Counted from the first letter of the stretch, positions 19,910-64,000 are shown. The stretch: DNA of 64,000 nt from an uncultured bacterium (GCA_963777505.1 CAVZQN010000007.1:128001-192000), one strand, 5' to 3'. Numbers and translations are program-made. The notes: generated by a model from the sequence alone, not told the origin.

Positions 19910-20462
19910 ATGCAGATCAAGCGTCTGGAGCCAAGCTCCATTCAACAAAAGTCAACAACAGAAAACACAGAAACGAACTCTTCATCCTCAGTCAATTTGA
20001 ACTCCGGAGTTGGCAACATAAAAGATGGTTTTGAACCACTAAAAGTAGATGAAGGATCAACGAGACCCTTAAAGCTCAATTTTGTAAAACAGCAAATGAC
20101 TGCTTATATGAGTTCGAAAATAGCCACAAAGCGCAAACGATCCGATGTTTGCTGTCATGGACGAGTACTTAAAAATGAATGACAATGAAATTGGTTCGGC
20201 TCACGGCTCACGTGATATTTTTCAAACAGTAGATACCGACGCAACGTCTGAGCTTACACTTGGCCAAACCTCCCGCCTGAATCGAGGAAACGCAAGAAAC
20301 CACGTTGATACGCAAGGCAAACCATTAAACGAACTAAAACAATCCGCAAGCGACATCAAAGAAACGCTACTTCAGAATGCCGGCCTTGATGAAGACAAAA
20401 AGAACGTAATGAACCGTTATGAAAGAATTTCTTTGTGGATCAGAGCCCGAGAAGACGATTAG
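19910..20462 (+). CDS. Hypothetical putative secreted substrate (frameshift near 20150)
   Basis: MQIK start, GVGNIKDGFE motif and EDKK segment shared with 49172..49690. Confidence 0.6.
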
Positions 20463-20545
20463 ACAGAGAGAAAAGATAGTGTGGTTGGAAACTACTAATC
20501 ACCGGGTTTAGGAAAGCGCCGTAACTCCGTGGTAACTTTATCTTG

Positions 20546-23526
20546 ATGCAAAAGGCGACAATCCTTTTGATTCACTTCTTGCTCTACTGCAGTTCTACCT
20601 TTGCCCTGGATCCGAACAAAGCCATTACTCAATATGTACGCGATTCCTGGCAAGTCGAAAATGGTCTTCCACAAAACTCCGCCATGTGCATTTTACAAAC
20701 ACGCGATGGTTATCTCTGGATTGGAACAGAAGAAGGGCTCGCGCGTTTTGATGGCGTCCGCTTTAAGGTGTTCGACAAATCAAACACTAAAGAAATCGAA
20801 GAAAATTGGATGAATGGTCTCGCGCAAGACCGCAATGGAACACTCTGGATTGGGACTGATGGTGGTGGGTTGCTGCGCTACAAAGCGGGCAAGTTTGAAC
20901 GTTTTATGCCTAAAGAAATTCATCCAAGGGTTTGGCCAATTTATGAAGATCGCAAAGGAACTTTGTGGGTTGGCACTCTTGGAGGCGGACTCTTCCAGGT
21001 TAAAAACGAAAAGATTCTCCGCAAATACAAAGTCAACGATGGACTCTCCAGCAATGCAATCTGGTCAATTCTGGAAGATAAGAAAGGAAACCTTTGGATT
21101 GGAACAGCGAAAGGTCTAGATCTTTTGAAAAATGGAAAGTTTGTTCAGTATGCACCGATTGAACGAGTCGCTGCACTCAATGAAGACCGCGAAGGAAATT
21201 TATGGGTTGGGAGTGGCAATGGCGGGCTCTGGCGTTTTCGTGATGGCAAATCGGTGATGTTCTCAACAAAGGATGGATTAATTAACAACATCATTGGCAG
21301 CATTTTAGAAGATCGCGCCGGAAACGTTTGGATTGGTACAAACGGAGGCGGCTTGAGCCGGTGGAAAGATGGTTTATTCGAATCGTTTCAACTCACAACC
21401 GGCGATCAGAATTTTGCACTTCATGAAGATCGAGAAGGAAGCCTCTGGATTGGATTAGTTCCAGGAGGTTTGCACCGGCTGGCGGATGGCGCTTTTGTGA
21501 GTTTCGGAATCGAAGAAGGACTTCCGGATGATCATGTTTTTTCTGTTCATGAAGGTAAACAAGAAGGCGTTTGGATTGGAACAAGTGGCGGTGTAGCGCA
21601 GAAACAAAAAGACGGCAGCTGGATCAAATATTCCAAGTTGAATGGTCTTTCCAGCAATTCGATTAGTGCCGTGTTCGAAGATACTGAAGGATTTCTGTGG
21701 GTAGGCACTTATGATTCGGGATTGAACCGCTGCAAGAATGGAAAATGCATTCAGTTCACAAGACAATCCAGTTCGAGTGTGGAACCTGAGAATCCGATCT
21801 GGTCTCTTCAAGAGGATCGAGATGGAGGAATGTGGATTGGTACAAATGGAGCGGGAGTTTCTTCGCTCAAGAATGGAAAATTTACTGACTATTCTACTTC
21901 GCAAGGACTTTCCGATATTGATGTGCACGCAATCGTTCAAGATGATGATGGCAGTCTTTGGTTTGGAACAGAAGGTGGCGGGCTGAATCATCTGAGCAAT
22001 GGTAAATTTCGCGTTTACACGAGTCGTGATGGACTTTCAAATGATCGGATTCTCAGCCTTTATAAAGATGCTGAAGGAAATTTGTGGATAGGCACGCGCG
22101 AGGGCTTGAATCGTCATTACAAAGGGAAATTTACTCAGTACAGAAAAAAAGACGGCCTGTTTGACGATCTTATTCATGGGGTTCGTGAAGACGATCAAGG
22201 AAACTTATGGATGACCTGCAATCGTGGTGTTTTCAGGGTTAGCAAAAAAGAGTTAAACGATTTCGCATTGGGAAACATCACTTCTATACGTTCTATTGTT
22301 TATGGAAAACCGGATGGCTTAAGAACATCCGAGTGTATCGGAGCAAATCAGCCGGGACTTTGGAAATCGCATGATGGCAAGTTGTGGGTTCCAACGATCC
22401 GCGGAGTCGGCGTTGTTGATCCTTCTCAACTGATGGCTAATAAAGTTAAACCTCCTGTTTATATTGAAGACATTTTGATTGATGATGTTCCGTTCATTAG
22501 GACAAAAGGCTCAGGCAATTGAATTTTCGCCAGGAAAGAAGAAATTTGAATTTCGTTACACCTCTCTCAGTTTATTAATTCCGCAAAGAGTAAAATTTCG
22601 CTACAAGCTGGTGGGTTTTGATCAAGATTGGGTAGAAGCCGGCACAAGGCGAGTCGCCTATTACACTGGACTCACTCCGGGTCACTATCGTTTCAGTGTG
22701 ATAGCCAGCAATAACGATGGACTTTGGAATGAGACTGGCGATTCACTTGGTTTTTATTTAAAGCCATATTTTTATCAGACCTTCTGGTTTTACTTATTGT
22801 GCGCCATCGGTCTTTCTTTGGTAGCGGCTGCGATCTACCGTTTCCGGATCAAGAAAATCAAAGCGGAATTCGATGCAGTGCTGGCTGAACGTACACGGAT
22901 TGCGCGAGAAATTCATGATACTCTCGCGCAGGGTTTATCTGGAATTGTTTTGCAGCTTGATGCTGCACAAGAAGTCAAAAGTCAGAAAGAATCCAATTAT
23001 CATTTTTCAAAAGCCCAGGATCTTGCAAGAAGCAGTTTGAAAGAAGCCCGTCGAACAATCTGGGCATTGCGACCACAAGAGCTGGAATCATCTGGATTAC
23101 CAACTGCAATTTCGGAAACTGCAAAAAGAATCATTGCTGATAGCGATCTGCAATTTCAAATGAATGTGATCGGAGAACCGCGCAAACTTTCACCGCAAGT
23201 AGAGGAACAACTTCTTCGCATTTCACAAGAAGCCATCACAAACGTTATGAAGCATGCCCGCGCAAAAGCTCTTTGGGTCGGAAGTGAAGTATGAATCAAA
23301 CAAGATCGAGTTGTTGGTGCGGGATGATGGTGTCGGATTCAATCCGGATACCGCTTCGACAGATGGGCATTTTGGATTGACTGGCATCAAAGAACGCGTG
23401 CATCAAATCAAAGGAGCACTCCGCATTCAGAGTCAACCGGAAACAGGAACCGAACTACTTCGTTTCTGTGTCTTTGTAGGGGCGGGTAAAAATACGTACT
23501 ACTCCAAATGTATAATACCGCGTTGA
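20546..23526 (+). CDS. Sensor histidine kinase with beta-propeller (Reg_prop) and Y_Y_Y domains, HisKA_3 (frameshifts ~22510, ~23280, ~23460)
   Basis: Repeated EDxxGxLWIGT blades; YKLVGFDQDW...YTGLTPGHY; ERTRIAREIHDTLAQ; VRDDGVGF, GHFGLTGIKER. Confidence 0.9.
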
Positions 23527-24122
23527 AGCGCAGCCGTTGCAGCTTGAGTTCGATCGCTGACACCGAGCTTGATCAAGACATTGCTAACGTATCCTTTTAT
23601 TGTTCCTTCGGTTGTATGAAGTTGAGCAGCAATTTCCTTATTGGATAGACCATTCACAATTAGTTTCAGGACATCCGATTCGCGAGTGGTCAGATCAGAA
23701 GATGGAATGCGAGCAGCCAAACGTTCAGCAATTTCCGATGGAATTTTTCGCTCTCCCGCATGAACAGCACGGATCGTTTCTAATAAAACTTTTGTCGGTG
23801 ATTCTTTTTGGAGATAGGCACGAGCGCCGCCATGAAGCGCACGATAAATATCTTCCTCACCATGAAACGATGTCATGACAATGATTCGCGCGTCGCGAAA
23901 CGTTTTGCGAATCTCCCCTATCGCATCCTGTCCACTCATTTTTGGCATCACCAAATCCAACAACAAAACATCCGGCCTGTTCAATCGGTAAGCTTCAACC
24001 GCTTCCACTCCATTTTCCGCCGCCGCAACGACAAGCATGTCCGGTTGTGCATTGATGATCGCGATCAATCCTTCACGCACAACCGGATGATCATCGGCTA
24101 CAACTATTCGAATTGGTTCCAT
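23499..24122 (-). CDS. NarL/LuxR-family response regulator
   Basis: ADDHPVVREGL, DLVMP, LTTRESDVL...GLSNKEIA...KLGVSDRTQA. Confidence 0.95.
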   Translation of the reverse strand: MEPIRIVVADDHPVVREGLIAIINAQPDMLVVAAAENGVEAVEAYRLNRPDVLLLDLVMPKMSGQDAIGEIRKTFRDARIIVMTSFHGEEDIYRALHGGARAYLQKESPTKVLLETIRAVHAGERKIPSEIAERLAARIPSSDLTTRESDVLKLIVNGLSNKEIAAQLHTTEGTIKGYVSNVLIKLGVSDRTQAATAALQRGIIHLE

Positions 24123-24362
24123 CGGTCCTTGTCCTCAGTTTATTTAGGATAGGCCCCTAAAAGCGATTCCCTGAGTAGCTATGGTTAGCTATTTTTACCT
24201 AACTTTCGTCTATCTTTGACGTGCTTGCCTTGAACGCTTCTTCAGGTAATACTTGGAAAGAAGACAAATCCTTTTTCAAACGATTTTTACTCTGTGGAGT
24301 AAAAATACTCGTAAACAACCAACCAGAACAAACAGGTAAAGACAATTCTTATCAGGAGGAAC

Positions 24363-24827: not shown

Positions 24828-24840
24828 CATTTCATCTTTG

Positions 24841-24919: not shown

Positions 24920-24960
24920 GTGAATCAATTCTCAAGAATCTTCGGCCCGCCACTTATCTG

Positions 24961-25977
24961 CTAATCGCCGACTTGAACCAGGGTGTATCCAATGTCATTT
25001 TTGTTTGCGATGTCTTCCGGAAAGGATTCCAAAAATCGATTCCAGTCCTCTTTGTGGATCGTCTGACATCCCGCGCTGCCGGTTTCGCTGTTATACCCGG
25101 TATGGATCAGAATCGTTTTTCCTGATTTTTTATCATCGTGACCATCGTTGAAAAAGCCATCGCCATTCAGATCGCGCTCAACAGGAACGTCTTCTGTGGG
25201 TCTCAAAGCCGGCTCTTGTTTCGTTCCATCTTTTGTTTCCACGTCACGTGTGCTCACTTCATACTTGTAAAATCCAGGCAGGAGACGTCCGCCATCCCTG
25301 TTTCCATCCTTGTTTACATCCTGCGAAGATGTTTCTGTAAATTTGCGGGCAGGATCCACAGTTGCTTTTTTGAATTCTTCGACCCTTTTTGTTCCGTCTT
25401 TTTCCTGCCATAAAACGGCGAGCGTATCATCATACACACCTTTGGAATTCAACGTTTTCGGGTCAAGTTTGCCTGCGTCGATTGCTGTCGGATTACGGAT
25501 CCCTACGATATTACGGGCTCCCGCTTCTGAATTAAATGTACCACCGCCAAGCTCAGTTAGGTTTTTGTAGTGATCAAACTTCTGGCTTTCCGTCATCTTT
25601 GTCGTGTCAACTTTGGCGACGTCCTGTGCACTTGAAGGCGGCGCGGGCAGTTCACATTCTCCGGTGGAAACTTCCTTTGAAGCCGTTCCTTTCGACCCCG
25701 GATGCTGAGGAATGCCTTCATATATATTGTCGCGAAATGATTTTCCGGTCTCTAAGGCGCGATTGAGAGAATCTTTCATCATCTCCGCTCCCATTTCCAT
25801 ATACCCTTTTTGTTCAGTAGCAGGAGCCGAAGCATTCGCCGGCTGTCCCGTTACTTCGCTGGATGATGTCGATGGGGTCTCGCACGTCTCCGCTGACACT
25901 TGTGTGTTCTCTGGAGTTGACGTTTGTGAAACAGTATCTGTTCTTGCAAAAGAACTTTTTGATGTCTGAGGTATCAT
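24961..25977 (-). CDS. Putative secreted substrate with L,D-transpeptidase (YkuD)-like C-terminal domain
   Basis: S/T-rich N-terminus; C-terminal ILIHTGYNSETGSAGCQTI (Hx(9)SxGC); no signal peptide. Confidence 0.7.
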   Translation of the reverse strand: MIPQTSKSSFARTDTVSQTSTPENTQVSAETCETPSTSSSEVTGQPANASAPATEQKGYMEMGAEMMKDSLNRALETGKSFRDNIYEGIPQHPGSKGTASKEVSTGECELPAPPSSAQDVAKVDTTKMTESQKFDHYKNLTELGGGTFNSEAGARNIVGIRNPTAIDAGKLDPKTLNSKGVYDDTLAVLWQEKDGTKRVEEFKKATVDPARKFTETSSQDVNKDGNRDGGRLLPGFYKYEVSTRDVETKDGTKQEPALRPTEDVPVERDLNGDGFFNDGHDDKKSGKTILIHTGYNSETGSAGCQTIHKEDWNRFLESFPEDIANKNDIGYTLVQVGD

Positions 25978-26193
25978 GTAGCACTTCTCCAAACTAATTT
26001 CGATTAGACAGATCAGGCTTAACAAGCCACAATCCCGTCCATTTATTAGTGCGGAAAAATCAAGCGCATGGGATCATCTCCATTTTCAACCGTGGTGGGC
26101 AATTCTCAAATTCATCGTGGCTATACCGGCCGTTCATTCGGTCTATCGATTGTTCACGATACGAAGATTTCTGCGTACGGAAAAAGCAGCCCA

Positions 26194-26219: not shown

Positions 26220-26273
26220 TATTAACGATTGCAGTTGCGCGGTGATATTTTCGCGCATCTTGGAGGAGATAAC

Positions 26274-27689
26274 ATGGGCGATCTAAAAGTATCTGGAAAT
26301 GTTGTACATCAAGGAGCACCGAAAACTGTTGATGAGCAAGTGCTCGATATTACCGAAAGCCGGACAATGCCGCCAGGCAAGAAATTAGATGAATTGGAAA
26401 ACACCTTTAAAAATTTACCCGATGGTGAGAAGAAGGAACTTTACGATCGTTTGAAAACGAAAAATAGACAGGATCCTGTATCCCGTTCATTTCATTACCG
26501 GTTCGCCCATTCAGGAAGCCCGGGGAAACTTTCGGAAGTGGATCGTCTCCTCAATGCGTTAAAGCCAGATCATGCGAAAGTGCCGGACAATCCAGCTGCA
26601 AAAAGCGGTCAACCTCCGAAATCTCCAACGAAGGGTCCATCCCCTAACCCGATCAGCGACAAAACTGCAAGAGCAATCCTGATTGATTTTAAACCGCAAG
26701 CTCAGGAAGCAAAGACCGACTTTGGACCTGAAATTCAGGTCATGTCTAAAGACATCCTTAAAACTCCAGCCGAAAAAGTTCAATACGCCCGCGAACGTTT
26801 AGAAAAAGCGAGCAAAGATGATTTGAGAAAAATTATTACCGAATCACAAAATTGGCCCGAAGACAGCAGACAAATAGTATCTGAAGCAATGGCTGGATCT
26901 ACAAAAGTAATGGGACGTCTCGCAAAAGAATTTACTCCGGTCGAGGCAGAAAAAATTATTGAGCGAGCGAAGTATGATTCCAAAAATGTAGAACCTGATG
27001 CTGTAGCGAAAAATGCAAAAGGTCTTCGGGCGTGGATGGACAATGCTGATCCTGTCGCATTGAATGTTCTTATGAGTAAAAGTTCTATATTGCATTCTGA
27101 GATTGCGGAGCAGGTCAAGGCAAACGATCTTGGAGTGTTTCAAAAATTACCTCCGAGAAACAAAGGCGACATCATTCAATTTGGCGTTATGACGGGATCG
27201 GATATGACGAATGGTCTGCGTTCGATGAGACCCTCTGAAAAGAATTCCACAATGGAACGGCTTCAACAAATGAATTTGACGGATAAATTTGTGAAAGCGA
27301 GCGGAGCGAACATCGATCAGCGCCTCCTGGATGGTATCGATATCGATAAAAAAACAAACTTATTTACTTCAGGTGCCAAGCAAGGCATTGATATGAGCCG
27401 CGGATTTCATGGAATGGATGCGTCAGATAAGAATGCTGTCTTTGATGCACTTCAAGCAAATAATGACACTCAAGTATTTCAGTCCTTTGTTAGAACAACG
27501 GCTCCTAAATTAGACGGTGGATTCTTAAAAGGTCTCAATTCTGAGAATGTTGAATCTTTGCGCAAGACATTACTTTTCCTTGGAGACGCAGCGAAGTTGA
27601 AGAACCAGACCGATCTCGCCATTCTTTACCAAGGTAAGGCGAATTATCTTGAAAACTGGGCTCAAGAAAACTTCAGGCGCCAGAAGTAA
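26274..27689 (+). CDS. Hypothetical helical protein, no signal peptide
   Basis: GGAGGAG RBS then ATG 26274 (MGDLKVSG); P-rich linker; internal helical repeats (MTNGLRSM/MSRGFHGM). Confidence 0.75.
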   Translation: MGDLKVSGNVVHQGAPKTVDEQVLDITESRTMPPGKKLDELENTFKNLPDGEKKELYDRLKTKNRQDPVSRSFHYRFAHSGSPGKLSEVDRLLNALKPDHAKVPDNPAAKSGQPPKSPTKGPSPNPISDKTARAILIDFKPQAQEAKTDFGPEIQVMSKDILKTPAEKVQYARERLEKASKDDLRKIITESQNWPEDSRQIVSEAMAGSTKVMGRLAKEFTPVEAEKIIERAKYDSKNVEPDAVAKNAKGLRAWMDNADPVALNVLMSKSSILHSEIAEQVKANDLGVFQKLPPRNKGDIIQFGVMTGSDMTNGLRSMRPSEKNSTMERLQQMNLTDKFVKASGANIDQRLLDGIDIDKKTNLFTSGAKQGIDMSRGFHGMDASDKNAVFDALQANNDTQVFQSFVRTTAPKLDGGFLKGLNSENVESLRKTLLFLGDAAKLKNQTDLAILYQGKANYLENWAQENFRRQK

Positions 27690-27707: not shown

Positions 27708-28556
27708 CTATTCGTCAATGTTCTTATGAATGATCGGATTAAACGGAATTGCAGCTGGGGCGCTCTCCATCTGAGTCAGATCTTGATTGGATAAACCCTC
27801 TTGCCAAGCTTGTTCGGCAACAATTGCATCTGTAGTCGTCATCGGATCACGAGTCTGAGAAGGCTGAGCTTCTTTCGCTTGCCGCTCCTTTTCTTTCGCA
27901 ATCTGCTCAGAGACGGAATTCATTTCGCTTTGTACTTCTTCCAGCTGTGAATTCAATGACTCGATATTGGTGTCTATTTCTCCGATCTTTCGCTCCAGAT
28001 CAGTCTTGATCTTTTGCAACTTTTGCTTGTATAGAATTTCTAGGCCTACAACACCAGGAATGATGGGCAGGTCAGCAATCATCCCAACAATTCCTATTGG
28101 TTCCAGTAGTTTACGTAGTTCATCAGTAATCGGTAGATTTGAGTTGATCATCTCCATTACTGAGGCAAGGGCTTTTTGAGCTTTTAACTTCTCGCCTTCT
28201 GCAACCTCGATTTGTGATTGAAGGTCTGCGCTTCTTTCATTTAGAGCATTCAAACGGTCCATTAATTGAGGTAAACGATTATCGAGTTGACCTACACTCG
28301 GCTCATAAGAACTAAACAGAGAGGAAGCTTCCACGGTAATATCTCGAGTTTGAGAAGGCTGGATTAAAGATGCACTCTGGGCTTGCTCCTCGAGATAATA
28401 GAAATTCTCAGGAGCAGCCTCAAACTGATCTGCGGTTTTCGCAATACCAAAATTCGGAATTAGTGGAGTCTGAATTTGGACTGGACTTTCAGTTTGCGGA
28501 TTTTGATTCACATCGACTATTACAGAATTTGGCATCCTTCTACTGATGAAACTCAT
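27708..28556 (-). CDS. Coiled-coil protein with central hydrophobic segment, translocator/pore-former-like
   Basis: GGAGGAG RBS; GIAKTADQFE motif; heptad coils flanking PIGIVGMIADLPIIPGVVGLEILY. Confidence 0.7.
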   Translation of the reverse strand: MSFISRRMPNSVIVDVNQNPQTESPVQIQTPLIPNFGIAKTADQFEAAPENFYYLEEQAQSASLIQPSQTRDITVEASSLFSSYEPSVGQLDNRLPQLMDRLNALNERSADLQSQIEVAEGEKLKAQKALASVMEMINSNLPITDELRKLLEPIGIVGMIADLPIIPGVVGLEILYKQKLQKIKTDLERKIGEIDTNIESLNSQLEEVQSEMNSVSEQIAKEKERQAKEAQPSQTRDPMTTTDAIVAEQAWQEGLSNQDLTQMESAPAAIPFNPIIHKNIDE

Positions 28557-29521: not shown

Positions 29522-32345
29522 ATGAGAAAGTTGTTTTTGATTGCTACGATTCTATTCGTAGCCTTCCAGTTTACTTTTTTCGCTCACGCGGGCGACAAAA
29601 AGTCAAAAAACCAAAAAGCGCTTGATCCCGTCGGCATAAAACAGCTTAAGGAAGAGAGTCCAGCTAAAACCAAAGTCTACGTTTCAGATGCTACGGGCGC
29701 AGTGCGTTTTATCGGATTTGGTGCAGGCGGCGCGAAAGCGCTGGATAAAGCGGCTTCTGCGCAAGATCGATCTCTTTCATTCTTGCAGAAACACGGCAGT
29801 GTTTTTGGATTAAAGAATGCCATGACCGAATTGAAAATCATTGATGAAAGAAGTGATTTTCAAGGCGGAAAACATTTATCCTATGCGCAGCAGTATTTTG
29901 GAGTCCCTGTTTTTGCCGGAGTTCTCAAAACTCACTTCGATGCTGCCGGACAGCTTCGCGCGATTAACGGCACCGTCATTCCGGAAATTAATGTGAATCA
30001 CAATCCCACCAGAAAATCGGATGATGCTGCAGCTTCCGCTCTTGCAAGAATCATTGATCAGAAAGGAAAGGACGAATCGATTTCTGTTGCGGGAACACGG
30101 TTAATGGTTTTTCGTTCAGGGCTTCTACAAGGCGTACCAGGCCAGAATCATCTGGTATGGGAAGTTGAAGTTAGTAACGGAGCAGACGTCCGTGAGTTCG
30201 TTTACATCGACGCGCATACAGGCAAATTTGTAGATCAAATTACCGGTATCGTGGACTCAATGTTTCGTCGTGCATACGATGCGCTCGGTCAAACAGCACC
30301 TGGTCCAAATTATCCGGCCAGTCCCTACTGGGTAGAAGGTAATCCATTTCCGACAGCTTCAACCGAAGCCAACAACATGATTCTTGCCTCTGGCGAAGCA
30401 TATGGATTCTTCTCAACTGCATTTGGCCGCGATTCGTTTGATGGCGTAGGCGGAATCATGGATTCCATTTTCAATCGAGGCAATGCATGCCCAAATGCTT
30501 CCTGGAATGGACAGTTCATTTCATTTTGCCCGGGCACCACTTCCGATGATGTAACAGTACATGAATGGGGCCATGCTTATACGCAATACACGCATGACTT
30601 GATTTACCAATGGCAATCGGGTGCGCTGAATGAATCGTATTCCGATATTTGGGGTGAAACTGTCGATATTATGAACGGACGTCAGACTGACACCCCTGGC
30701 ACTCGTTGCTGCGAATAGCTGCAGTACATCCACAGCATTGCCACCCTCGGTTACAGTTAATTCTCCTCCAGCAATCGCAGGGCAAAAACAAGCAGGCAGC
30801 GCTGCTTTCGGTCCACAGAGCTTCAACCTTACGAATGACATTGTTCTTGCAAATGACGGCGTGGCGGCACCGAGCACAAGCGACGGATGTTGCGCTGCTC
30901 CCTCTTTTGTCTGTGCTCCTAATTCGTGGGCTAACGCCGCAGCAATAGCAGGCAAGATTGCACTTGTTGATCGCGGAACTTGCGGCTTTGAAATAAAGGC
31001 AAGAAACGCCCAGGCAAATGGTGCAGTTGGCGTAATCGTTGCGAACAATACGGCGGGTATCATCAACATGGCTGGCGACGCGTTACCCGATCCCACAATC
31101 CCGTCACTATCAATCCTCCAAACTGATGGTAATGCAATCAAGGGTCAGCTCGCTATCCCTACCACGGTGAACGCAACATTAGCGCGTGGTGGAACAGGCT
31201 CAGATAACACTGTGCGCTGGTTGATGGGTGAAGATGCCACAGCCTTCGGCAGAGCGATCCGCGATATGTGGAATCCAACCTGTTATGGCAATCCCGGAAA
31301 AGTAACCGATACCCAATATTTCTGCGGAACGGGCGATAACGGTGGAGTACATCTGAACTCGGGTGTGCCAAATCATGCATATGCGTTGATTGTCGATGGC
31401 GGTACCTATAACGGCCAAACAATTACTGCGTTAGGGTTTACAAAAGCAGCGCATATTTATTTCCGCGCAATGGCGGTTTACCAGGGTCCGGCAAGTAATT
31501 TCGCAGATCACGAAGTTTCTATCCTTCAATCTGCTGAAGATCTAGTTGGAATGAATCTTCCCGATCTTGCTACGGGTTTGCCTTCAGGCCAAATCATTAG
31601 CACTGCTGATGTCACTGAAGTTGAACAAGCAATGCAAGCAGTTGAAATGAGCACATCGCCTACACAGTGCAACTTCCAGCCGATTCTGGCAAAGAACCCA
31701 CCCGCACTCTGTGCGCCTGGTGACAAGTTGAAAGTACGTTTCAAAGACACTTTCGAAGATGTTGTTTTGTCCAACTCGCTCTGGAGTGTTAGTCATGAAG
31801 CGGTAACACCTGCTGACTTCACAGATCGTGATTGGGTGATTGTCACCGAGCTTCCGGATAATCGTGCAGGAAAAGGCTTCTTTGGAGTCAATCCGAACAT
31901 CGGAACTTGTGGTCCTGGAGGAGATGAATCCGGCGTTCTTCACCTGACGAGTCCTCAGATTACCATACCATCCTCTGCATCGGCTCCAAGGATTTCCTTT
32001 GATCATTGGATCGCAACTGAAATTGGATGGGACGGTGGGAATGTAAAGGTCAGTGTAAACAATGGACCATGGCAGACTGTTCAATCAGCCGCCTTCATCT
32101 ACAATCCCTACAACCTCGTGTTAAACCCTGCTCCAGGGAACACCAACCCGCTCGCGGGACAACCCGCATTTTCTGGAACCGATCAAGGTTCGGTTAGCGG
32201 GTCCTGGGGACGTTCCATCATTAACCTTACTGGGTACGCTGGTCCAAATGATAAGATCAGAGTACGTTTAGATATTGGAAATGATGGATGTACCGGGATA
32301 TTCGGTTGGTACATTGACGACTTCCAGGTCTATACCTGCAAGTAA
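29522..32345 (+). CDS. Thermolysin-like M4 metalloprotease with PA-domain insertion (frameshift near 30715)
   Basis: Signal peptide, FTP/PepSY propeptide, CPNASWNG, HEWGH, GALNESYSD, PA domain (IALVDRGTC), DNGGVHLNSG. Confidence 0.9.
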
Positions 32346-32428: not shown

Positions 32429-32800
32429 TTAACTAGAAAAGAAATGCCAGATCTCGGACCACCATGACTTGGATTGCGGATCCTGTTGCGGATTCTTTTG
32501 ATTCTCCATTTTTGAGGATATATCCTGCATCATCTGCTCTGCTCGAGATGCTTCTCCCATCATGTCTTGCGCTTGTTGAACATCAGTTCTTTCTGCCAAG
32601 TCAGCATCCATATCTTTCTTCAATTCATCGATGAATGTTGTCCCTTGTTCAATGGGCCCTAATTGTTGCTTTATCTTTTCAGAAGAATACGATACCCCTC
32701 CGATACCAAACTGTGTTTTTGTTTTAGGTTGGCCGCCCAGAATTTCATCAGATGCCTGTGGCTGAACAATCTGCGTTCCCGTTCTTATTCCTTTAATCAT
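32429..32800 (-). CDS. Small putative secreted substrate
   Basis: GGAGG RBS, MIKGIR start; GIGGVSYSSE motif variant; helix similar to the C-terminus of 37464..38033. Confidence 0.65.
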   Translation of the reverse strand: MIKGIRTGTQIVQPQASDEILGGQPKTKTQFGIGGVSYSSEKIKQQLGPIEQGTTFIDELKKDMDADLAERTDVQQAQDMMGEASRAEQMMQDISSKMENQKNPQQDPQSKSWWSEIWHFFSS

Positions 32801-37463: not shown

Positions 37464-38033
37464 ATGGCATCGGATGGAATAACAAAACTGATCAAGGTCA
37501 CACAACAGAAGTCGACAAACGCGAATGAAGAAGCCTTAGAAGGGGCGGCAAACCAGCGATCTAATATAGATAAGCAAAAATCGCTAAGAGATGTACAGAA
37601 AACCCTCGATTCTTTTACGCAAGACTCCTCGATGTCGCGAGCTGATACCAAGGCAACTGCGAAACCCGGTGCGAATTTGAATTCAGGCGCCATTGCCTCA
37701 GAAGCTTCCGTTTCTAAGCCCGCAAGCTATCTCACAAGATTTTCGAAATCGGGCTTTGAGAAGTCCAGTCTGTTTTCAGCAGCCGGGTTAGCAAAAAATC
37801 TAGTCGATGTTCGCTCCAGCCCCACACATTACGCCAGCGGACTCAATGCCTTTGTGAAAGCACTCAGGGAAAGGTTTGAGGAATCAACCAAGGACCTTGA
37901 AGGAAAGGATAAACTGGGAAATTTTGAGATTAATAACTTGCTGAGCGTTTTCAATCAAGCGGAAACTCTGGCAGCTAGCACGAAAAAGAAGACCGATGAT
38001 CAAAACGGTTCTGTAGCCGGGAAGATAGGATGA
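37464..38033 (+). CDS. Putative T3SS needle/filament (SctF/EspA-like) C-terminal helix protein with N-terminal extension
   Basis: AGGAGG RBS; C-terminal INNLLSVFNQAETLAASTKKKTDDQNGSVAGKIG; ATGA-coupled to a TPR gene. Confidence 0.6.
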   Translation: MASDGITKLIKVTQQKSTNANEEALEGAANQRSNIDKQKSLRDVQKTLDSFTQDSSMSRADTKATAKPGANLNSGAIASEASVSKPASYLTRFSKSGFEKSSLFSAAGLAKNLVDVRSSPTHYASGLNAFVKALRERFEESTKDLEGKDKLGNFEINNLLSVFNQAETLAASTKKKTDDQNGSVAGKIG

Positions 38034-38473
38034 CCGAAAAAAACCAACGACAGGAAAAAAACCAGAGCGGTGAACAAGTATCTTCCGAAGCGCTTGCATC
38101 GGCCCTTCATTTTGCTCTACTTCATGAAGAGAACGGCCAGTACGATACTGCTGTAGCCGCTTTCAAATCCCTTCTATTGATGGATCCGTTAAATCCTTAT
38201 TTTCACGCGATGCTCGGCTCGATCTATCAAAGGCAAGGGGATTATGAAAGCGCCATCCAACAATACACGGAAGCACTAAAAATATTTCCATCTGATATAG
38301 ACTCGCTTACCAATCTCGGTGAGATACTGCTGAAGATAGCACAACCCCAAAGAGCTATACAGTGTTTAAAACAAGCAGTGGAGATAGATACAGAGGGGAA
38401 TCATCCCTCCGCGAATCGTGCCCGACTTATGTTGTCCCGTTTACTAGAAACAGTCGATCCAACTTCCAAGTAA
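38030..38473 (+). CDS. TPR protein, T3SS chaperone (SycD/YscG)-like
   Basis: Three TPRs in 147 aa (AVAAFKSLLLMDPLNPYFHAMLGSIY...); acidic; coupled to the upstream gene. Confidence 0.7.
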   Translation: MTEKNQRQEKNQSGEQVSSEALASALHFALLHEENGQYDTAVAAFKSLLLMDPLNPYFHAMLGSIYQRQGDYESAIQQYTEALKIFPSDIDSLTNLGEILLKIAQPQRAIQCLKQAVEIDTEGNHPSANRARLMLSRLLETVDPTSK

Positions 38474-41466: not shown

Positions 41467-41542
41467 GTTTTTGCACAGTGTCTCTGCTCGAGGCAATTTA
41501 CAATCCTGCTGTACAATACAAACCAATGGTAAGGGTTCACTG

Positions 41543-48600: not shown

Positions 48601-48762
48601 GTTGACTTTGTGCTTCGAAACCACCAACATCCCACCAGCCGAATCCTGAAGCCGCTTCAATGCAGCATCGCGAGCATCGTTGCTATCAGTCTGCGCCGAC
48701 AAAGTTGGCGTGATTAAGCACGCGCATACAATTACGGCGAACATCGCCTTCCTGAGTTTCAT
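45618..48762 (-). CDS. Thermolysin-like M4 protease with PA domain and C-terminal Calx-beta (several frameshifts)
   Basis: Signal peptide MKLRKAMFAVIV; HEWGH, GALNESYSD, IAIVNRGTC, DNGGVHINSG; Calx-beta (EGDSG...DETFSVVLS); paralogue of 29522..32345. Confidence 0.88.
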
Positions 48763-49107
48763 TTACAACCTCCTGTTCAGGGTTTGAGAGATACTTCAGC
48801 CATCAGTAGTTTTACGCAAAAACTACTTGACTGATTTTTAGAAAAGAGAGACTGCGAGCATCGGATATATGGGTGGATTTTTTAAAACCTGGGGGTGGTC
48901 AAATTATAGCATCAAAAAACTGAAAGATTGCAAGGCCGAACGAAACTCAGCGCAACTAGATTTTATTAAGACTGTCCCGCGCTAAGAAATGACAATGTTA
49001 AATCTTGTGAATTGAACCGAGGCAACTTAAATCGCAGTATGAGCAACTTCCGTTCTTTTTTCGCATTCTGGTGATGCATGACATCGACGTGAACAAAATT
49101 GTTTCCT

Positions 49108-49124
49108 TTGGCAATGAACTTGCT
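49108..49124 (+). promoter_or_regulatory. Sigma54 (-24/-12) promoter
   Basis: TTGGCAATGAACTTGCT, GG-N10-GC, about 50 nt upstream of ATG 49172. Confidence 0.7.
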
Positions 49125-49171
49125 CTCTTGAGTTGGGAGAACGTAGCACATGTCTACGCACAGGAGGAAAA

Positions 49172-49690
49172 ATGCAGATCAAAAAATCAAACGGAATTAG
49201 TGTTTCTCAAACTATTGAGACTCACAATTCCACGATTGAAAAAAAACCGGGCGTAAGTGTAGGTATAAGTTCGATTCCAGATTCTTTTGAATCGGCTTCC
49301 AGTAAGTCCTCTAACGGAAAAACAAATTCAACATCGTCTGCACATCAGCGATTTGAAGTTTCACAGCAACCAAACCTGAAGGACACCCTTTTTAATGCGT
49401 TTCGTCAGTCGATTAGCGAAACGAATGAAGACAAAAAGGATTATCTGGAAAAATTGCAAGAACAGAATCAAACGGCGAACGAACTTAGCGAATATTTGGA
49501 AGAACTCACCAATCAATCACAGGATTTGCAGAATAAGGAAAATTCAAAAGGCTCAGAGCATTCAGAGCCAAAACCTATAGCCGCTACAAATCAAAATGCG
49601 GACCTCTTAGAAGCAGTTGCAAGAAGAAATAGTGAATCTAATGACCTTGGCAGCATTAGAAAGACTTCCAAAAAGGAAGAACGACATTAG
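49172..49690 (+). CDS. Putative secreted substrate with coiled-coil EDKK segment
   Basis: AGGAGG RBS; MQIKK; GISSIPDSFE; FRQSISETNEDKKDYLEKL. Confidence 0.7.
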   Translation: MQIKKSNGISVSQTIETHNSTIEKKPGVSVGISSIPDSFESASSKSSNGKTNSTSSAHQRFEVSQQPNLKDTLFNAFRQSISETNEDKKDYLEKLQEQNQTANELSEYLEELTNQSQDLQNKENSKGSEHSEPKPIAATNQNADLLEAVARRNSESNDLGSIRKTSKKEERH

Positions 49691-50047
49691 ACAAATATTT
49701 TTCTTTGGGCATATTCGCTTCCGTATATCCAAAATGTAAACACAACGCGCGCGAGAGGTCGCAACATTGAAACGGTTGTAGTTTAGAAGTGACAGTTGTT
49801 TTGCGCGCAATTTTGTTGAACTTTTGTCATCAAATACTGTGCGGCCATTATTAATGTAAGTCCCTAACCTGCTCTTTATCAAAACTTCTGCTGGATGAAA
49901 AAGATGAGGAGCGAAGTGCAGAAATGAAACTCGCAAATGTAGCAGCTAAGAGAACAATTAATGCACAGCAAAATAGGTTAATGGATCCATTGGACTGACC
50001 GCTAATAATTGCACCGTCATTAGAGCCGATGGAAATTTAGCGTTGCA

Positions 50048-50075
50048 GCAAGGGCGATCACAACGTCGCCCTTGC
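50048..50075. terminator. Stem-loop between convergent genes
   Basis: GCAAGGGCGA-N8-TCGCCCTTGC. Confidence 0.55.
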
Positions 50076-50132
50076 CAGTCTCCGGAACTTCAAGGGGCTT
50101 AACGGAAAAACGCTAAGCCACGAATAACCTTA

Positions 50133-52007
50133 TTAAACGCCACCAGGAATTTTGGGGTGCAAATCTACATGAGTGTAAGAACTTTGAAGCGCAGATAAAA
50201 GATCGTGACCGTCGCTACCTGGCGCTGCTTCCCGCAGTTCCTGAAAGAGTTCCTCCATGACTTTATCCGCGCGCAAACCCGGATATTCTTTCAACAAATA
50301 TTTCACGGCTTCATCTTTGGTCATATCTTTCAACGCATCCTTCGCTTTTCCATGAACACCTGCAACGATTTTGGAAATCGTTTCCGCGCCTTCGATTCCA
50401 AGCATCTTTTTAGGAATGCCCCCTCCCGGCAGTAAGCTGAATCCAAGATCCATCATCCACTTTAATCCGGCTTCATTCGCAGCCTTGCGATCTTTCGCAC
50501 TCTTAACCGCAGTCTGCATTCCATTGTTAACAAAGCCCATGGTTTCGCCCATGATGTGCGTGAGTTGAGTCCGTTCCATTCCGTATTTCGCAGAGAAAGC
50601 TTGTTTTGACATTTTTGAATCGTTGATGTCGGCCATCCAACCGTTCATTTTTCCTGCAAGAAATTTACTCGTCTCATCACGATACTGGCCTGTAGGTTCA
50701 GAAAACAGAGCATGCTGGAAAAACCCTTCCAGTTTCGGCTGAATTGCCGACCTGTGTGGGTTGTTGCTTTCGTCATCAAATACCGCCTTATTTTGTGCAA
50801 GTCCAGATTTCCAAATCTTATCGAAATCATCCTGGAAAATTCCGGATAAGGCATCTTTCATGTCCGTGCTTTTAGACCAGATTGGGATCCGTTTAGCGTC
50901 AGAGTACACGTCTGCTGCTGATTGGAACATGTTTAACCGAAGGTCTTCCAACTCTTTAACATTAATCGGGAGTGACCGATCACGCGAACCTCCGTGACTT
51001 GCTATGTAGGTAGTATTGACAAGATTAGCGACACCTGTGGGCTGTTGAGTGGCCTCGGCCTTTCTTCCTTCATACGTGGAAGAGGCTTCATAAACGGACT
51101 GAGGTTGATAAGAAGTCGCATCTTTAACAAATGAGTCAAGCTTGTTTTCCTTACTCAGCTTGCTCATGAATTTCAGTTGATCTTCGATGGTAGTTTTCCC
51201 CATCAATTCCGCAGCTGATGTAGCATAAGCCGCTTTCGCTGTAGCATTCCACTGATAGGCTTGATAAAGCTGCATATTGTTTTCAGCAAACGACTTCTTC
51301 AAGTTTTCTGCTTGAGGAAGATTCGAAATGGACGTAGAAAGTTTTGCTAGAGTATCCACTCCCTGAGCGTTTGCAGCATGCACTATGCCCTGGACGTCCG
51401 ATGATGTGAGATCGCCAGATTTATGCAGCGTATGAATAGCATCTCGCACACCTCCTGTATATTTATCAACATCCGCTTTTGAGTTATTGGGACGGCTGAT
51501 GTACAGGAAATTGTGAGATCGTGCGATTAGTTCTTTGCTCTTGTCGCCGCCAATTGCTCCGAAAAATTCCTTCAGATATTTCGGATCATCTTTGTGTTTG
51601 GAAACTAATTCATGAAACTGCAGCGACGCATGAGCCGGGTCGGTATTTTCATATTTCATTACATGAGCTGCAGCTTCGATTGGTTTATCAAAGTTTCTAA
51701 CAACGACATTTTTCAGATCCATTCCGGGTCCGTCAAAGACCGCGGCTTGTGGTTTCGCTCCGGCCGGTAGGGCGTTATTCAAGTTTTGCTGAACCAGTTG
51801 TCCTGATATCTGAAGCTGACTTTTTGTTTCGGTTCCTTGCTGTTTCAAGGCTGTTGAAGTTTTTGCGGTTACTGCAGGGTCGTCCGCAGGTTTCGACGGC
51901 GGTGGTGGGGTTGTGATTGGTTGTTTATCCTGGGTTGCCCCGACATTGCCAGAATCCGTTCGGGTTATAGGTTTTGTTGTTGGATCGCCTATTGGTCCGC
52001 CACCCAT
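50133..52007 (-). CDS. Large hypothetical putative secreted substrate
   Basis: AGGAGG RBS; P/T-rich N-terminus with KSQLQISGQLVQQNLNNAL motif; helical body. Confidence 0.75.
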   Translation of the reverse strand: MGGGPIGDPTTKPITRTDSGNVGATQDKQPITTPPPPSKPADDPAVTAKTSTALKQQGTETKSQLQISGQLVQQNLNNALPAGAKPQAAVFDGPGMDLKNVVVRNFDKPIEAAAHVMKYENTDPAHASLQFHELVSKHKDDPKYLKEFFGAIGGDKSKELIARSHNFLYISRPNNSKADVDKYTGGVRDAIHTLHKSGDLTSSDVQGIVHAANAQGVDTLAKLSTSISNLPQAENLKKSFAENNMQLYQAYQWNATAKAAYATSAAELMGKTTIEDQLKFMSKLSKENKLDSFVKDATSYQPQSVYEASSTYEGRKAEATQQPTGVANLVNTTYIASHGGSRDRSLPINVKELEDLRLNMFQSAADVYSDAKRIPIWSKSTDMKDALSGIFQDDFDKIWKSGLAQNKAVFDDESNNPHRSAIQPKLEGFFQHALFSEPTGQYRDETSKFLAGKMNGWMADINDSKMSKQAFSAKYGMERTQLTHIMGETMGFVNNGMQTAVKSAKDRKAANEAGLKWMMDLGFSLLPGGGIPKKMLGIEGAETISKIVAGVHGKAKDALKDMTKDEAVKYLLKEYPGLRADKVMEELFQELREAAPGSDGHDLLSALQSSYTHVDLHPKIPGGV

Positions 52008-52047
52008 TTTTTTGTCCTCCTGTTACATATTTGTTTACTCTTTAAGG

Positions 52048-52074
52048 AAGACGATCCAACTCACCTAGTGAACG
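52048..52074 (-). promoter_or_regulatory. Bipartite motif CGTTCACT-N13-CGTCTT
   Basis: Recurs at 26194, 56461 and 57405. Confidence 0.6.
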
Positions 52075-52174
52075 GAGAACAAAGACACAAAGAACAAATA
52101 TTACTTAGATCTTATAAATCCTTTGTGACCTTTATTCTTTGTGGTGATTTCAATTCTTTCGCACGCAACATCTC

Positions 52175-53435
52175 CTACTTCTCATCATCAACGATCACTT
52201 TTGAATCATCGCTGTTATAGACAACATCGTTGCCATCTGTTTCCACTGTGATTGGAGCCACGCTATTTTCCTCACTGCGCACCCAGTAATCCTGTCCGGT
52301 ATAAGAATCTCTCATCCAATAACCGCCAGTGTCCGATCCATCATGATTTTCTTTAACGTAAACATGATCGTAGCCTTCTCCTGGATTGATTGTTGTTCCT
52401 TCTCCGGATGTCTGATTGATCCGATCGTTTCCGCCGCCTGTTGCGATTTTGCTGTAATCTCCGCTATTTTCAACCCAATCATTTCCATCGCCGGTCTGAA
52501 TAGTGGAACCACGGCCTTTATTGTCAACGTAATCATCGCCGTCACCGGTAGAAATGGCTGCTCCGATTGGTCCCTCGACTAACACTGAATCATTTCCTGC
52601 TCCCGTATCAACGCGGTTGGCGTAACCGGAGTAAGTGTCAATTCCTCCATTCGTAAAGCGCTCACTGCTCAGGCGAACCCAATCAGCTCCGTCTCCGGTT
52701 TGTATTTCGTTATTGTCTCCGGTTATTTCTACAATATCGTTTCCATCGCCTGTGTTAATTTGATTATTGTCTCCATTCGAGTTGACCGTGTCGTTTCCCG
52801 CACCTGTATCGATCGAAGTAAGCGAGCTCTGATTATTTACTACATCATTTCCATCACCGGTCTGAAGCTTAGTACCGACCAAATAATTCATGTTATGGAT
52901 GTTCACAGTATCGTTTCCTGCGCCAGTATTGATTGTCAGTGACTGATATTGTCTGACTGTCCCGGACCATGCTTCCTTTCCATTTACATTCACATGAACT
53001 CTTCCATCGGAACTCTGTTGGATATCAACGAGATCATCACCATCACCTGTGAACAGGGTCCTGGGCAACAGAGCTCCATTCCATGGATCTCTACCAGTAA
53101 GTGGTTTTCGCTGATCGTATTCAGGTTTGTTATTGATTTGCTGATCTGCCTGACTCTCCGTTAAGGGCGCTTTCAGATCAACTTGTGCGATGTTTTGAAG
53201 CGATTCAGGATTCGATTTCATAGATTCGTTGTTAGCTAGCTGTTGAGTCAACTGTGAGCGCATAGCCATTGTTGAAAACATAGCTTCACTTCGAATCGAT
53301 GAATTTGCGGCCGAAACTGGTTTTGTCTGCGGTGGCGCAATCTGCTCCTGCACATTTTGCTGCTGAGTTTCCTCAGTCTCCGTTTATTTCCGGCGTTGTA
53401 ATCCGTGGTGCTGAATTGATTCCGACCTTAAACAT
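52175..53435 (-). CDS. RTX-like Ca-binding repeat protein with secretion-type N-terminus (frameshift near 53385)
   Basis: True start MFKVGINS at 53435 after AGGAGG; about 10 TGxGxD repeats; RSEAMFSTMAMRSQL motif. Confidence 0.78.
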
Positions 53436-53462
53436 TTTTCCCTCCTGATGCTTTCAGCACTA

Positions 53463-53480
53463 AAGCAACGCTTATGCCAA
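53463..53480 (-). promoter_or_regulatory. Sigma54 (-24/-12) promoter
   Basis: TTGGCATAAGCGTTGCTT, GG-N10-GC. Confidence 0.8.
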
Positions 53481-53533
53481 GGGCATTGTGCGGGGATCTC
53501 GAGGATACGATCAGATCAGAATGCGTTTTGTTT

Positions 53534-55730: not shown

Positions 55731-56426
55731 TTACTTACGCGGTTTGATCATTTTCTCCATTTCAGCACTTATGTTTTCAATATCCATCGTTGCTTGAGTC
55801 ACTTGATTTTGAGTGTTAGCGGGACGCGTAGAGGTTTTACTTAATTCCAATCTATCCTTAGCCTGCTTCAGTTGGACCCCTTGCCTATTTCGCGTGAGGC
55901 TCGCGGATTCTGCATCGAGTTGATCTGCTTGTGCGCGGCTTTTATTATCATCCGGACCGCTATTCGCTCGAAGGTATTCCGCCCGCTTCTGAAAACTTGC
56001 ACGAACGATATTTAGCGCGGGCCATCCGCCTTTAGTTCTTGCATCGCTTATAGCTTTCTTCAATCCTTCCGGCTCTTCACCTGTGGCAACATAACGTTGT
56101 AGTTGCTCATTCGTAATCCCATACATCTTGAGAGCCTTCTGTAGAGCAGCGCCGTCGGATTTTGGTGTTTGATTCGTAGCACGAGTTGTCCCTGTAGAAA
56201 TCTTTTTGTTTGTCTGGTTGAGCAATTGCGATTGAAGTTGATTCGCCGTTATTCCTGCTTCAGCTTTACGTAAATTGGCGGCTTCAGGTTGAAGCTTTGG
56301 CGACGCGGCTTCCTGCTGAGAATTACCTACAGGATTTTTTTGGATCTTGTCTTCTGCTGATTGCGTATCGGATCCAGCCGAATCCGGAATCCGTACTAAA
56401 CCGCGAATTGATAGATCATTGCTCAT
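55731..56426 (-). CDS. Hypothetical putative secreted substrate
   Basis: GGAGG RBS; MSNDLSIRG; KAEAGITANQLQSQL motif. Confidence 0.7.
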   Translation of the reverse strand: MSNDLSIRGLVRIPDSAGSDTQSAEDKIQKNPVGNSQQEAASPKLQPEAANLRKAEAGITANQLQSQLLNQTNKKISTGTTRATNQTPKSDGAALQKALKMYGITNEQLQRYVATGEEPEGLKKAISDARTKGGWPALNIVRASFQKRAEYLRANSGPDDNKSRAQADQLDAESASLTRNRQGVQLKQAKDRLELSKTSTRPANTQNQVTQATMDIENISAEMEKMIKPRK

Positions 56427-56516
56427 GAGCGACCTCCACAATGAACTTCCCTTGTTAACAAAGACGTGCGGCGTAGCTAGTGGACGAAGACGGCTTTTTT
56501 AAAATCATTTACTTCG
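56403..56516. repeat. 114-bp direct repeat, copy 1 (promoter motif, RBS and first 8 codons)
   Basis: 6 mismatches vs 57347..57460; contains CGTCCACT-N12-CGTCTT at 56461..56486. Confidence 0.9.
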
Positions 56517-59674: not shown

Positions 59675-59830
59675 GGACTACACTCCCTCACTCTCTTTGG
59701 TAACTAGATTATCATACTCTCAGCTTCTTCCCACGATGTATCATTTAAAATAGGGATTGAAAACTCTTCGTTAGATGTCTGATTAAGAGTTTCATTGCCT
59801 GCTACGACTCACAGGGTACATAATAACTTC

Positions 59831-63205: not shown

Positions 63206-63373
63206 AGCAGCTATTTTTTTGTAGCATTTTTGTTCAAACGCGGCTTATTCTTCCCCTTCTCGAGAATAAAAAATCTTACAAAATCCGCTTTTTTAATACT
63301 TAGTCAGTCGTTCCGCATTTTTGCTAAAGACGTGATCGCCGTTTTGCGACCCTCCATTGAACATTTATGCTCG

Positions 63374-63401
63374 GAAACTTCAACAGAATTAGTTCCGATA
63401 A
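63374..63401 (+). promoter_or_regulatory. Possible sigma28-like promoter (TCCGATAA -10 box)
   Basis: AAACTT...TCCGATAA resembles the element upstream of 17072; spacing differs by 1 nt. Confidence 0.3.
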
Positions 63402-63475
63402 CTATCGCGATGAATGAAACGGTTCCGGTGCAAAGCAGCGGAACGAAACTTAAACAACCAATGGAGGATGTCAAA

Positions 63476-64000
63476 ATGAACGTAAGAATATCAACTTCAC
63501 TAACAAAACTTTTCACTGAACTACAGGAGTCCAGTGTGACCCCTGAAGTTTCGAAACCACAACTTAGCAATGTTCAAGAGGCTGCTGCAGCTGTAAGTCG
63601 AGTATCAACCGGCTTGGAATTTATTCAACAGCATGGCTTCGACTTTACCAGCACCGTTCAAAAAGCGTTGATGGAACGCTTGTCGATAGGTTTTGATAAA
63701 ACAGCGACGAAATTTCCGAGCACTGAGTCGCCTCTTTTTGTAAAAGGTAACGGTGATACGAACTCTGTAGATGGGAGTGATATAAACCAGCAAGGCTTGC
63801 GAAACTGCTGGCTGATGGCTCCGCTTGCCGCAATGGCGGAGAAGGATCCGGAAGCCATTAAACGGATGATCAAAGATAATGGTAACGGCACGTATACCGT
63901 AACATTTAAAGAAAAAATAATGACGAATCCTCCTGTTTATGTTGACAAACCGGTCACTGTTACGGCTGATTTTCCTGGTGGAAAAGCAGGTAACGGACAT
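63476..64000 (+). CDS. Calpain-like (C2) cysteine protease domain protein, partial (runs off the window)
   Basis: GGAGG RBS, ATG 63476, open to the end; DINQQGLRNCWLMAPLAAMA...IKDNGNGTYTVTF; missing from the ORF track. Confidence 0.75.
   Translation, partial: MNVRISTSLTKLFTELQESSVTPEVSKPQLSNVQEAAAAVSRVSTGLEFIQQHGFDFTSTVQKALMERLSIGFDKTATKFPSTESPLFVKGNGDTNSVDGSDINQQGLRNCWLMAPLAAMAEKDPEAIKRMIKDNGNGTYTVTFKEKIMTNPPVYVDKPVTVTADFPGGKAGNGH

Follow-up and report, generated by a model that had tools for sequence, protein, structure and literature searches.

A lineage-restricted, sequence-defined N-terminal leader of putative secretion substrates in soil Acidobacteriota

Introduction

Secretion substrates are usually not recognisable from their sequence, and for those of type III secretion systems (T3SS) effector prediction goes by an unstructured N-terminus that is rich in Ser, Thr, Asn and Pro and poor in Leu. 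Here we describe an N-terminal leader of about 45 residues that opens three genes in a 64,000-nucleotide stretch of DNA (C7:128001-192000; hereafter the window) from the 5.23-Mb genome of an uncultured lineage of soil Acidobacteriota. The closest described counterpart of its motif is the conserved domain for chaperone binding (CCBD) found in Shigella and Salmonella type III effectors, for which Costa et al. (2012, PMC3280449) give the consensus (LMIF)xxx(IV)xx(IV)x(N) at residues 25-45 of class IB chaperone substrates, besides the beta-strand motif psi-X2-4-psi-X1-2-psi bound by class IA/IB chaperones. As to machinery, the Myxococcales-type non-flagellar T3SS is described by Abby and Rocha (2012, PMC3459982) as lacking a needle and LcrH-like chaperones. 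We found no description of T3SS effectors or of this leader in Acidobacteriota in full-text literature searches, which, supplements aside, yielded only general T3SS evolution and unrelated microbiome papers.

In layout the leader resembles the CCBD: according to PMC3280449, the CCBD is a sequence motif common to many otherwise unrelated substrates, can be found by pattern search, and lies at residues 25-45 of an unstructured N-terminus, downstream of the secretion signal. The leader motif, for its part, begins at residues 29-40 in 15 of the 17 carriers, whose bodies differ widely. In sequence the two part ways, the CCBD being a hydrophobic beta-strand pattern (PMC3280449) whereas the leader conserves G, D, F and an acidic residue. 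The CCBD consensus is matched by none of the 17 carriers, and by one when D is allowed for N (background 33 of 4272 open reading frames (ORFs), first 60 residues). The position thus agrees and the sequence does not, which makes for a CCBD-like layout rather than membership of that motif family. The [IV]xx[IV]x[DN] core, in which an earlier note on the window's sequence had seen a likeness to the class I beta-motif, stands at the motif site in 5 of the 17 carriers. Like the class IA/IB site of PMC3280449, the leader motif lies in a disordered N-terminus, and [IV]xx[IV] occurs in those 5 carriers; unlike it, the second hydrophobic position is not conserved, and the invariant residues are polar or aromatic and form no hydrophobic triplet. 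The likeness is therefore superficial, given the lack of fit to the CCBD and the conserved residues outside its consensus.

Results

The earlier note had proposed the pattern G[IV]xx[IVT]xDxFE in five proteins of the window, and all five peptides were located (Table 1). Three of the proteins, encoded at 19910, 28556 and 49172, are true members of the set, and the two 'variants' at 32800 and 63476 fall away on their scores against the leader hidden Markov model (HMM). A six-frame search of the genome found the strict pattern eight times, each time 29-37 residues past an ATG. The relaxed pattern G[IV]xxxxDxFE was found 15 times: one match falls in a 23-codon frame and the other 14 in N-terminal parts of ORFs, 13 of these 29-40 residues past an ATG. 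In a crude proteome of the genome (5024 ORFs, 1.61 M residues) the motif occurs 12 times, always inside the first 80 residues, whereas 200 residue shuffles gave 2.09 matches on average (at most 7) over all positions, and 0.5 (at most 3) within those 80 residues. Positional statistics of the kind that the note had proposed hence bear out a strongly N-terminal motif, which is far from being equally frequent at random positions. The start codons of the carriers are credible, since GGAG or GAGG stands 5-12 nt upstream of the ATG in 14 of the 17 that begin with Met. A LysM-domain protein (G000:C4:1012009-1012464, G000 being the genome of the window), whose gene adjoins a leader gene, has GIMSMPDSFE at residue 73, past its LysM domain, and is the sole case with the motif more than about 45 residues from the N-terminus.

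The leader is bipartite: an opening M-x-I-[KRN]-[KR] is followed by about 25 polar residues, rich in Ser, Thr, Asn, Gln, Pro and Glu, and then by G-[IV]-[AGS]-x3-D-x-F-E. The HMM, run in two search rounds over all six-frame ORFs of the genome, recovered 17 ORFs at E<=2.3e-9, one of them a near-duplicate on contig C13, and a further two weakly. In an alignment of 16 sequences (30% mean identity) D and F are invariant and G is kept in at least 90%, and in one of 26 sequences from four genomes D is invariant, with G and F at least 90%. These residues and the acidic one form the conserved core of the motif, and neither alignment has a Thr or Ser at a conserved position. The middle [IVT] of the proposed pattern does not hold as a family feature: of 15 carriers, 5 have I there, 4 have T, and the other 6 have S, D, P, A or H. 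Over residues 3-30, Ser, Thr, Asn, Gln and Pro make up 0.50 of the leader as against 0.24 in all ORFs, and Leu 0.02 as against 0.12. The maximum 12-residue Kyte-Doolittle hydropathy averages 0.35 for the leader and 1.48 for all ORFs, and by the same scale no Sec/Tat-type hydrophobic h-region was found in the first 30-40 residues. Disordered, rich in Ser, Thr, Asn, Gln and Pro, poor in Leu and free of a Sec signal, the leader has the N-terminal profile of a T3SS substrate. The leader exists, keeps its position, is predicted to be disordered, carries no Sec signal and is fused to unrelated bodies.

The carriers measure 90-556 aa, and the Pfam scan found in them no family above cut-off and no eukaryote-like domain. 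Their bodies are of at least five unrelated types: a helical hairpin of 280 aa, a glycine zipper of 107-166 aa, the 'MMEYQKIMNKEARED' type, a type with an 'FGDGxxGKxPPxGN' stretch, and singletons; several carriers end in an acidic C-terminal tail. For the 282-aa carrier of the window, AlphaFold2 (alignment of ten relatives) gave disorder over residues 1-90 (predicted local distance difference test, pLDDT, <50), a helical hairpin round a Gly/Pro-rich hydrophobic loop over residues 91-230 (pLDDT 85-98) and a disordered tail. Foldseek found 0 matches to this model in the PDB at E<=0.001, and otherwise only generic helical hairpins, e.g. helices of EspA, YscO, IpaB, colicin and Tc toxin. With a non-Sec leader and a central hydrophobic hairpin between long helices, the 280-aa subfamily is reminiscent of chlamydial Inc proteins and of the hydrophobic translocators of T3SS, and in one genus of the family (g3) it adjoins the operon of a class II-type TPR chaperone; it has, however, neither a sequence match nor a significant fold match to either group. 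A subfamily with 'NTGExxFGDGxxGKxPPxGN' is encoded at G000:C4:1251799-1252935, at L034:1471-2229 and in L025. A link of the first of these to contractile injection, suggested by a weak match to TIGR02243 (putative baseplate assembly protein, E=7.8e-4), was rejected, as no sheath, tube or VipB gene was found in the genome.

In order to map the leader we compared the 13 genomes of the class, which comprise its own family (f1; G000 and G001-G006) and two sister families (f2 and f3; six genomes), G001 being of the same genus as G000 and G003 and G005 sharing genus g3. The wider profile, built from four genomes, finds 19 leader genes in G000, six in G001, four in G003, two in G005, a single weak one in G002, and none in G004, G006 or the six genomes of the sister families; a narrower profile has 0 matches in 34 genomes outside the family. 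Among 1.84 billion protein-cluster representatives, 31 match the leader (E<=0.001), 30 of them with a match that begins at residues 1-10. The leader is restricted to one family of Acidobacteriota, on unrelated bodies. A search of the ESM Atlas gave no usable match, and genomic-context scans found 0 relatives of a single protein in metagenome_contigs and, with a smaller alignment, 0 in metagenome_contigs and 0 in genome_contigs. In G000 the leader genes are spread across 7 contigs, and neither Pfam of 101 neighbouring ORFs nor all-versus-all BLAST of 162 neighbours revealed a shared small chaperone or secretion gene.

FHIPEP, a core component of T3SS export, occurs as a single copy each (E about 1e-230) in five of the six other family genomes, and 10 of the remaining 12 genomes in the class have SctJ-like genes. 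G001 has a compact Sct cluster with SctR, SctN and SctL above their NCBIfam cut-offs, together with SctV, U, T, S, J and Q, an SctO-like and a FliO-like gene, a FliA-like sigma factor, a needle-size ORF and three LcrH/SycD-like chaperones; the 46 ORFs scanned there include no gene for a flagellar rod, hook or filament. The T3SS that five of the six family relatives carry is a non-flagellar one. The G001 cluster also holds, at the position of YscH, an ORF with a leader-like opening, MKIKG. In the same region (G001:C3:86-110 kb) SctQ carries an N-terminal FHA fusion, SctJ is interrupted by one in-frame TGA, and there is no secretin gene. Like the Myxococcales-type system (PMC3459982), the Sct clusters of the relatives have no secretin gene, and no SctC-type secretin scores above cut-off; unlike that system, the cluster in Acidobacteriota includes an ORF of needle size as well as LcrH-like chaperones.

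Chaperone-like genes are kept in G000 itself, which has three LcrH/SycD-like TPR genes: two that tblastn with the ORFs of the G001 region picks up (C5:6134-6658, 46% identity; C7:117679-118158, 37%) and the one at window 38030-38473. The search for a CesT or class I chaperone elsewhere in the genome, as the earlier note had advised, turned up two Pfam CesT-family matches at C3:354248-354987 with 33.8 and 23.9 bits (cut-off 22), one fused to a Ser/Thr kinase and one free (C3:354586-355047). A search for relatives of the free CesT/YbjN copy was positive for five of the six other family genomes and for none of 34 genomes from outside the family. The predicted complex of two copies of this free protein with the leader scored 0.01 and 0.02 against a mark of 0.32, which is no evidence on binding in either direction. 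In G005 the divergent neighbour of a leader gene is an operon that encodes a 199-aa protein and, with it, an LcrH-like chaperone (TIGR02552, E=2.6e-16), and in G003 a 220-aa homologue of that 199-aa protein (43% identity) adjoins the orthologous leader gene; since both genomes belong to one genus, this synteny counts as one observation.

Of 21 leader-type genes, 5 have a sigma-54-type promoter (at most one mismatch) 49-63 nt upstream of their ATG, as against 66 of all 5024 ORFs, and such promoters also stand upstream of 2 of 11 leader genes in relatives. Among the 66 ORFs are several other genes with similar polar N-termini. A k-mer scan upstream of the leader genes found nothing apart from the sigma-54 sites.

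Discussion

We tentatively favour, as a possible explanation, that the motif forms the conserved close of a bipartite export leader of the T3SS type, portable and N-terminal, and serves it as a docking motif. What speaks for it is the position, composition, disorder and portability of the leader and the translocator-like bodies behind it, as well as the T3SS of close relatives, the chaperone genes kept in G000 and the synteny in g3. Residues 1 to about 28, that is M-x-I-K/R-K/R and the Leu-poor, disordered stretch rich in Ser, Thr, Asn, Gln and Pro, would act as a type-III-style secretion signal, and the G-[IV]-[AGS]-x3-D-x-F-E that follows (residues 29-45) would be the docking site for one shared bacterial factor. 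This factor may be a multi-cargo chaperone or a component of the sorting platform, tagging the carriers as substrates, and the docking motif would be analogous to the class IB CCBD with a different sequence. The carriers, being small coiled-coil, glycine-zipper or hydrophobic-hairpin proteins, may be translocator-like or membrane-acting substrates. We infer that the leader directs export, that the route is the non-flagellar T3SS of the relatives, and that there is a receptor for the motif.

Several observations weigh against this explanation. FHIPEP, Bac_export_2 and SctJ have 0 matches in the G000 assembly, and tblastn with every ORF of the 80-kb Sct region of G001 found no T3SS core gene there, so that putative substrates and an export apparatus do not occur in the same assembly, as would be expected of type III secretion substrates in general. 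The largest leader repertoire (19) sits in precisely this assembly. Across the 13 genomes T3SS and leader do not co-vary, six T3SS-positive genomes having no leader and one a weak match. With an SctC-type secretin above cut-off in none of the five T3SS-bearing relatives, outer-membrane delivery stays putative for them too. No recurrent neighbour and no nearby secretion operon of the leader genes was found in G000, and the motif, as compared above with the consensus of PMC3280449, does not fit the CCBD.

From the nulls in G000 alone one would arrive at a lineage without T3SS, a reading overturned by FHIPEP in 5 of 6 family relatives. At 95.9% completeness in 14 contigs, the assembly does not prove that the organism has no T3SS; it is probably a metagenome bin, which would allow for a missing island, and on priors a real loss of the T3SS is at least as likely. 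The idea in the earlier note of a class of export substrates with a shared N-terminal motif holds up. Its type III reading is borne out in part, by the T3SS of 5 of 6 relatives and the retained chaperone genes, and has against it the absence of a T3SS core from the assembly in which the motif was noticed.

The leader could instead address a route other than T3SS, which we consider somewhat unlikely. Such a route may run through unrecognised machinery or through a family-specific module at C3:354 kb, where a CesT/YbjN-domain Ser/Thr kinase, its free CesT/YbjN paralogue and an FHA-domain ABC exporter are preceded by a sigma-54 activator gene. That 17 strong carriers, mostly intact ORFs, persist in an assembly without T3SS would fit, as would the restriction of both the leader and the free-CesT/YbjN relative to f1, whereas T3SS is class-wide, and the pairing of the activator before the module with the excess of sigma-54 promoters at leader genes. 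However, any family-specific trait would show the same distribution; G004 has the module and no detectable leader, G002 the module and a weak match only, and no leader gene lies near the module. Other known routes that read a non-Sec N-terminal signal were not found in G000 either: VirB4 has 0 matches, and so have VipB, Phage_sheath_1 and Phage_T4_gp19, the sheath and tube genes that T6SS or contractile-injection cargo would call for, the last of these being uninformative because the search was also silent in every control genome. The C39 peptidase PF03412, which marks the ABC transporters that export double-glycine leaders, has 0 matches, while 7 of 14 control genomes are positive. The three secretins of G000 are ordinary. 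Furthermore, protein export is not known for the characterised relative of these FHA-ABC exporters. The more specific claim that the leader is a sequence-defined signal for a route independent of the T3SS core, for example from the CesT/YbjN pair to the FHA-domain ABC exporter, is conceivable because the genome with the largest repertoire has no such core, and we rate it as distinctly improbable. If it were true, this hand-over, controlled by kinase and sigma-54, would amount to a new pathway for the export of proteins, one whose address tag can be read.

It is quite unlikely that the leader is a paralogous cytoplasmic region for interaction or regulation, i.e. a docking or phosphorylation site for kinases or FHA proteins, or a degradation tag. 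G000 is rich in Ser/Thr kinases and FHA proteins, several of them encoded beside leader genes, the leader itself is Ser/Thr-rich and disordered, and the assembly offers no export apparatus for it. Conversely, a strict distance from residue 1, co-conserved with M-x-I-K/R, is typical of signals that are read from the N-terminus, no Thr or Ser of the leader is conserved, the conserved residues being G, D, F and the acidic one alone, and hydrophobic hairpins and glycine zippers without a Sec signal would fit membrane insertion after export.

Linear ligands of the D-x-F type are known for eukaryotic adaptor proteins, and the invariant D-x-F with its acidic residue in a disordered region would suit a motif that acts after delivery, on a protein of the target cell, and owes its N-terminal site to common descent. 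We regard this as very unlikely: action in the target does not require a fixed distance from residue 1, which the carriers keep across very different bodies, and they have no eukaryote-like domain. Finally, that the motif arises by chance or from annotation, as its shortness and the roughly two proteome matches predicted from composition might suggest, is refuted by the shuffles, by the recovery of the same leader by profile in three other genomes and by the 31 independent cluster representatives.

Taken by its sequence, the leader is a lineage-specific N-terminal marker of putative secretion substrates in Acidobacteriota, with a layout like that of the CCBD and a sequence of its own. As such a marker it yields a direct list of candidates for secreted or injected proteins, about 17 in G000 and 31 cluster representatives worldwide. 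It raises the question of whether D-x-F-E is what a chaperone or sorting platform grips in selecting cargo, and whether this group, free-living in soil, directs a secretin-less T3SS at protists or at other bacteria. Were export to be independent of T3SS, the finding would be more important still.

Other features of the window

Table 1. Leader genes, motifs and associated features of the window (window coordinates; motif residues counted from the ATG starts of the earlier note)
Feature	Position	Strand	Evidence or remark
Leader gene, 5' part, MQIKR..., 90 codons	19910..20182	+	leader HMM E=5e-15
Motif GVGNIKDGFE, residues 33-42	20006..20035	+	
3' part of the 19910 gene, other frame	20145..20462	+	tblastn of G001 orthologue
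Leader gene, 282 aa, MSFISRR...	27708..28556	-	leader HMM E=1e-15; no Pfam family above cut-off
Motif GIAKTADQFE, residues 37-46	28419..28448	-	
Non-member 'variant', 123 aa, MIKGIR...	32429..32800	-	3.6 bits against leader HMM; N-terminus of like style without D-x-F-E; alignment stops at 'FGIG'
Peptide GIGGVSYSSE, from residue 32	32678..32707	-	
189-aa polar protein	37464..38033	+	ATGA overlap with downstream TPR gene; no family found
147-aa TPR protein, LcrH/SycD-like	38030..38473	+	best NCBIfam match TIGR02552: E=2.1e-19, 69.6 bits (cut-off 104.8), profile 8-134 of 136
Sigma-54-type promoter TGGCAA-N5-TTGCT	49109..49124	+	63 nt upstream of ATG of 49172 gene; one mismatch to TGGCAC-N5-TTGCW
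Leader gene, 172 aa, MQIKK...	49172..49690	+	leader HMM E=6e-16; near-identical copy on C13
Motif GISSIPDSFE, residues 31-40	49262..49291	+	
Non-member 'variant', calpain-type Peptidase_C2	63476..64000	+	-0.3 bits against leader HMM, no motif alignment; 329 aa, runs past the window to C7:192450; Peptidase_C2 E=1.5e-20; polar N-terminal extension
Peptide AVSRVSTGLE, from residue 39	63590..63619	+	

The calpain-type Peptidase_C2 family, to which the non-member at 63476 belongs, is uncommon among bacteria. The 189-aa protein and the TPR protein downstream of it are, judging by the overlap of their genes, translationally coupled, and the N-terminus of the former has 'NANEEALEGAANQR', which is also found near the C-terminus of the glycine-zipper leader proteins C4:1012596-1013096 and C5:63114-63437.

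A second set of proteins has polar, non-Sec N-termini of another kind (MFKIG.., MVDKIG.., MFKVG..) and is encoded in the window at 9207-10202(-), 15153-17072(-), 24961-26025(-), 26229-27689(+), 50133-52007(-), 52175-53479(-) and 55731-56441(-), with about 20 more such N-termini genome-wide. A disordered stretch rich in Pro, Thr and Gln is followed by an amphipathic helix, e.g. 'SEFALSGMARAAQF', and among the bodies PG_binding_1, an HExxH region and repeats that bind Ca are represented. The set is probably the class that the earlier note had called 'motif A'; an HMM from three proteins with an 'AEHxIxGQARxAQ' helix, by which we attempted to define that class, found nothing beyond its seeds. Near-consensus sigma-54 promoters, of which another lies at window 53464-53479(-), precede genes of the 'motif A' type as well as several leader genes, and genes for bacterial enhancer-binding proteins with GAF or FHA sensors are nearby (window 396-1928; C7:192.5-194.4 kb; C5:8319-9977).

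The 19910 gene is frameshifted, its 208-aa orthologue in G001 aligning by tblastn in two frames over 19910-20462. It is one of many genes of the window that are split into adjacent ORFs (19910-20462, 20543-23294, 29522-32345, 41471-42423, 45618-48635 and 52175-53479), among them, besides the leader gene, those of a histidine kinase, two M4 peptidases, a Ser/Thr kinase and a protein with Ca repeats; they could be genuine pseudogenes, or the breaks could be indel errors made in assembly. Contigs C12 and C13 closely match (87-98% protein identity) C7:174-181 kb as near-identical copies, i.e. the window from about 46000 to 53500, and either a segmental duplication or co-assembled strain variants would account for these copies. 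On C12/C13 the copy of the Ca-repeat gene runs unbroken across the point at which the window copy is interrupted.

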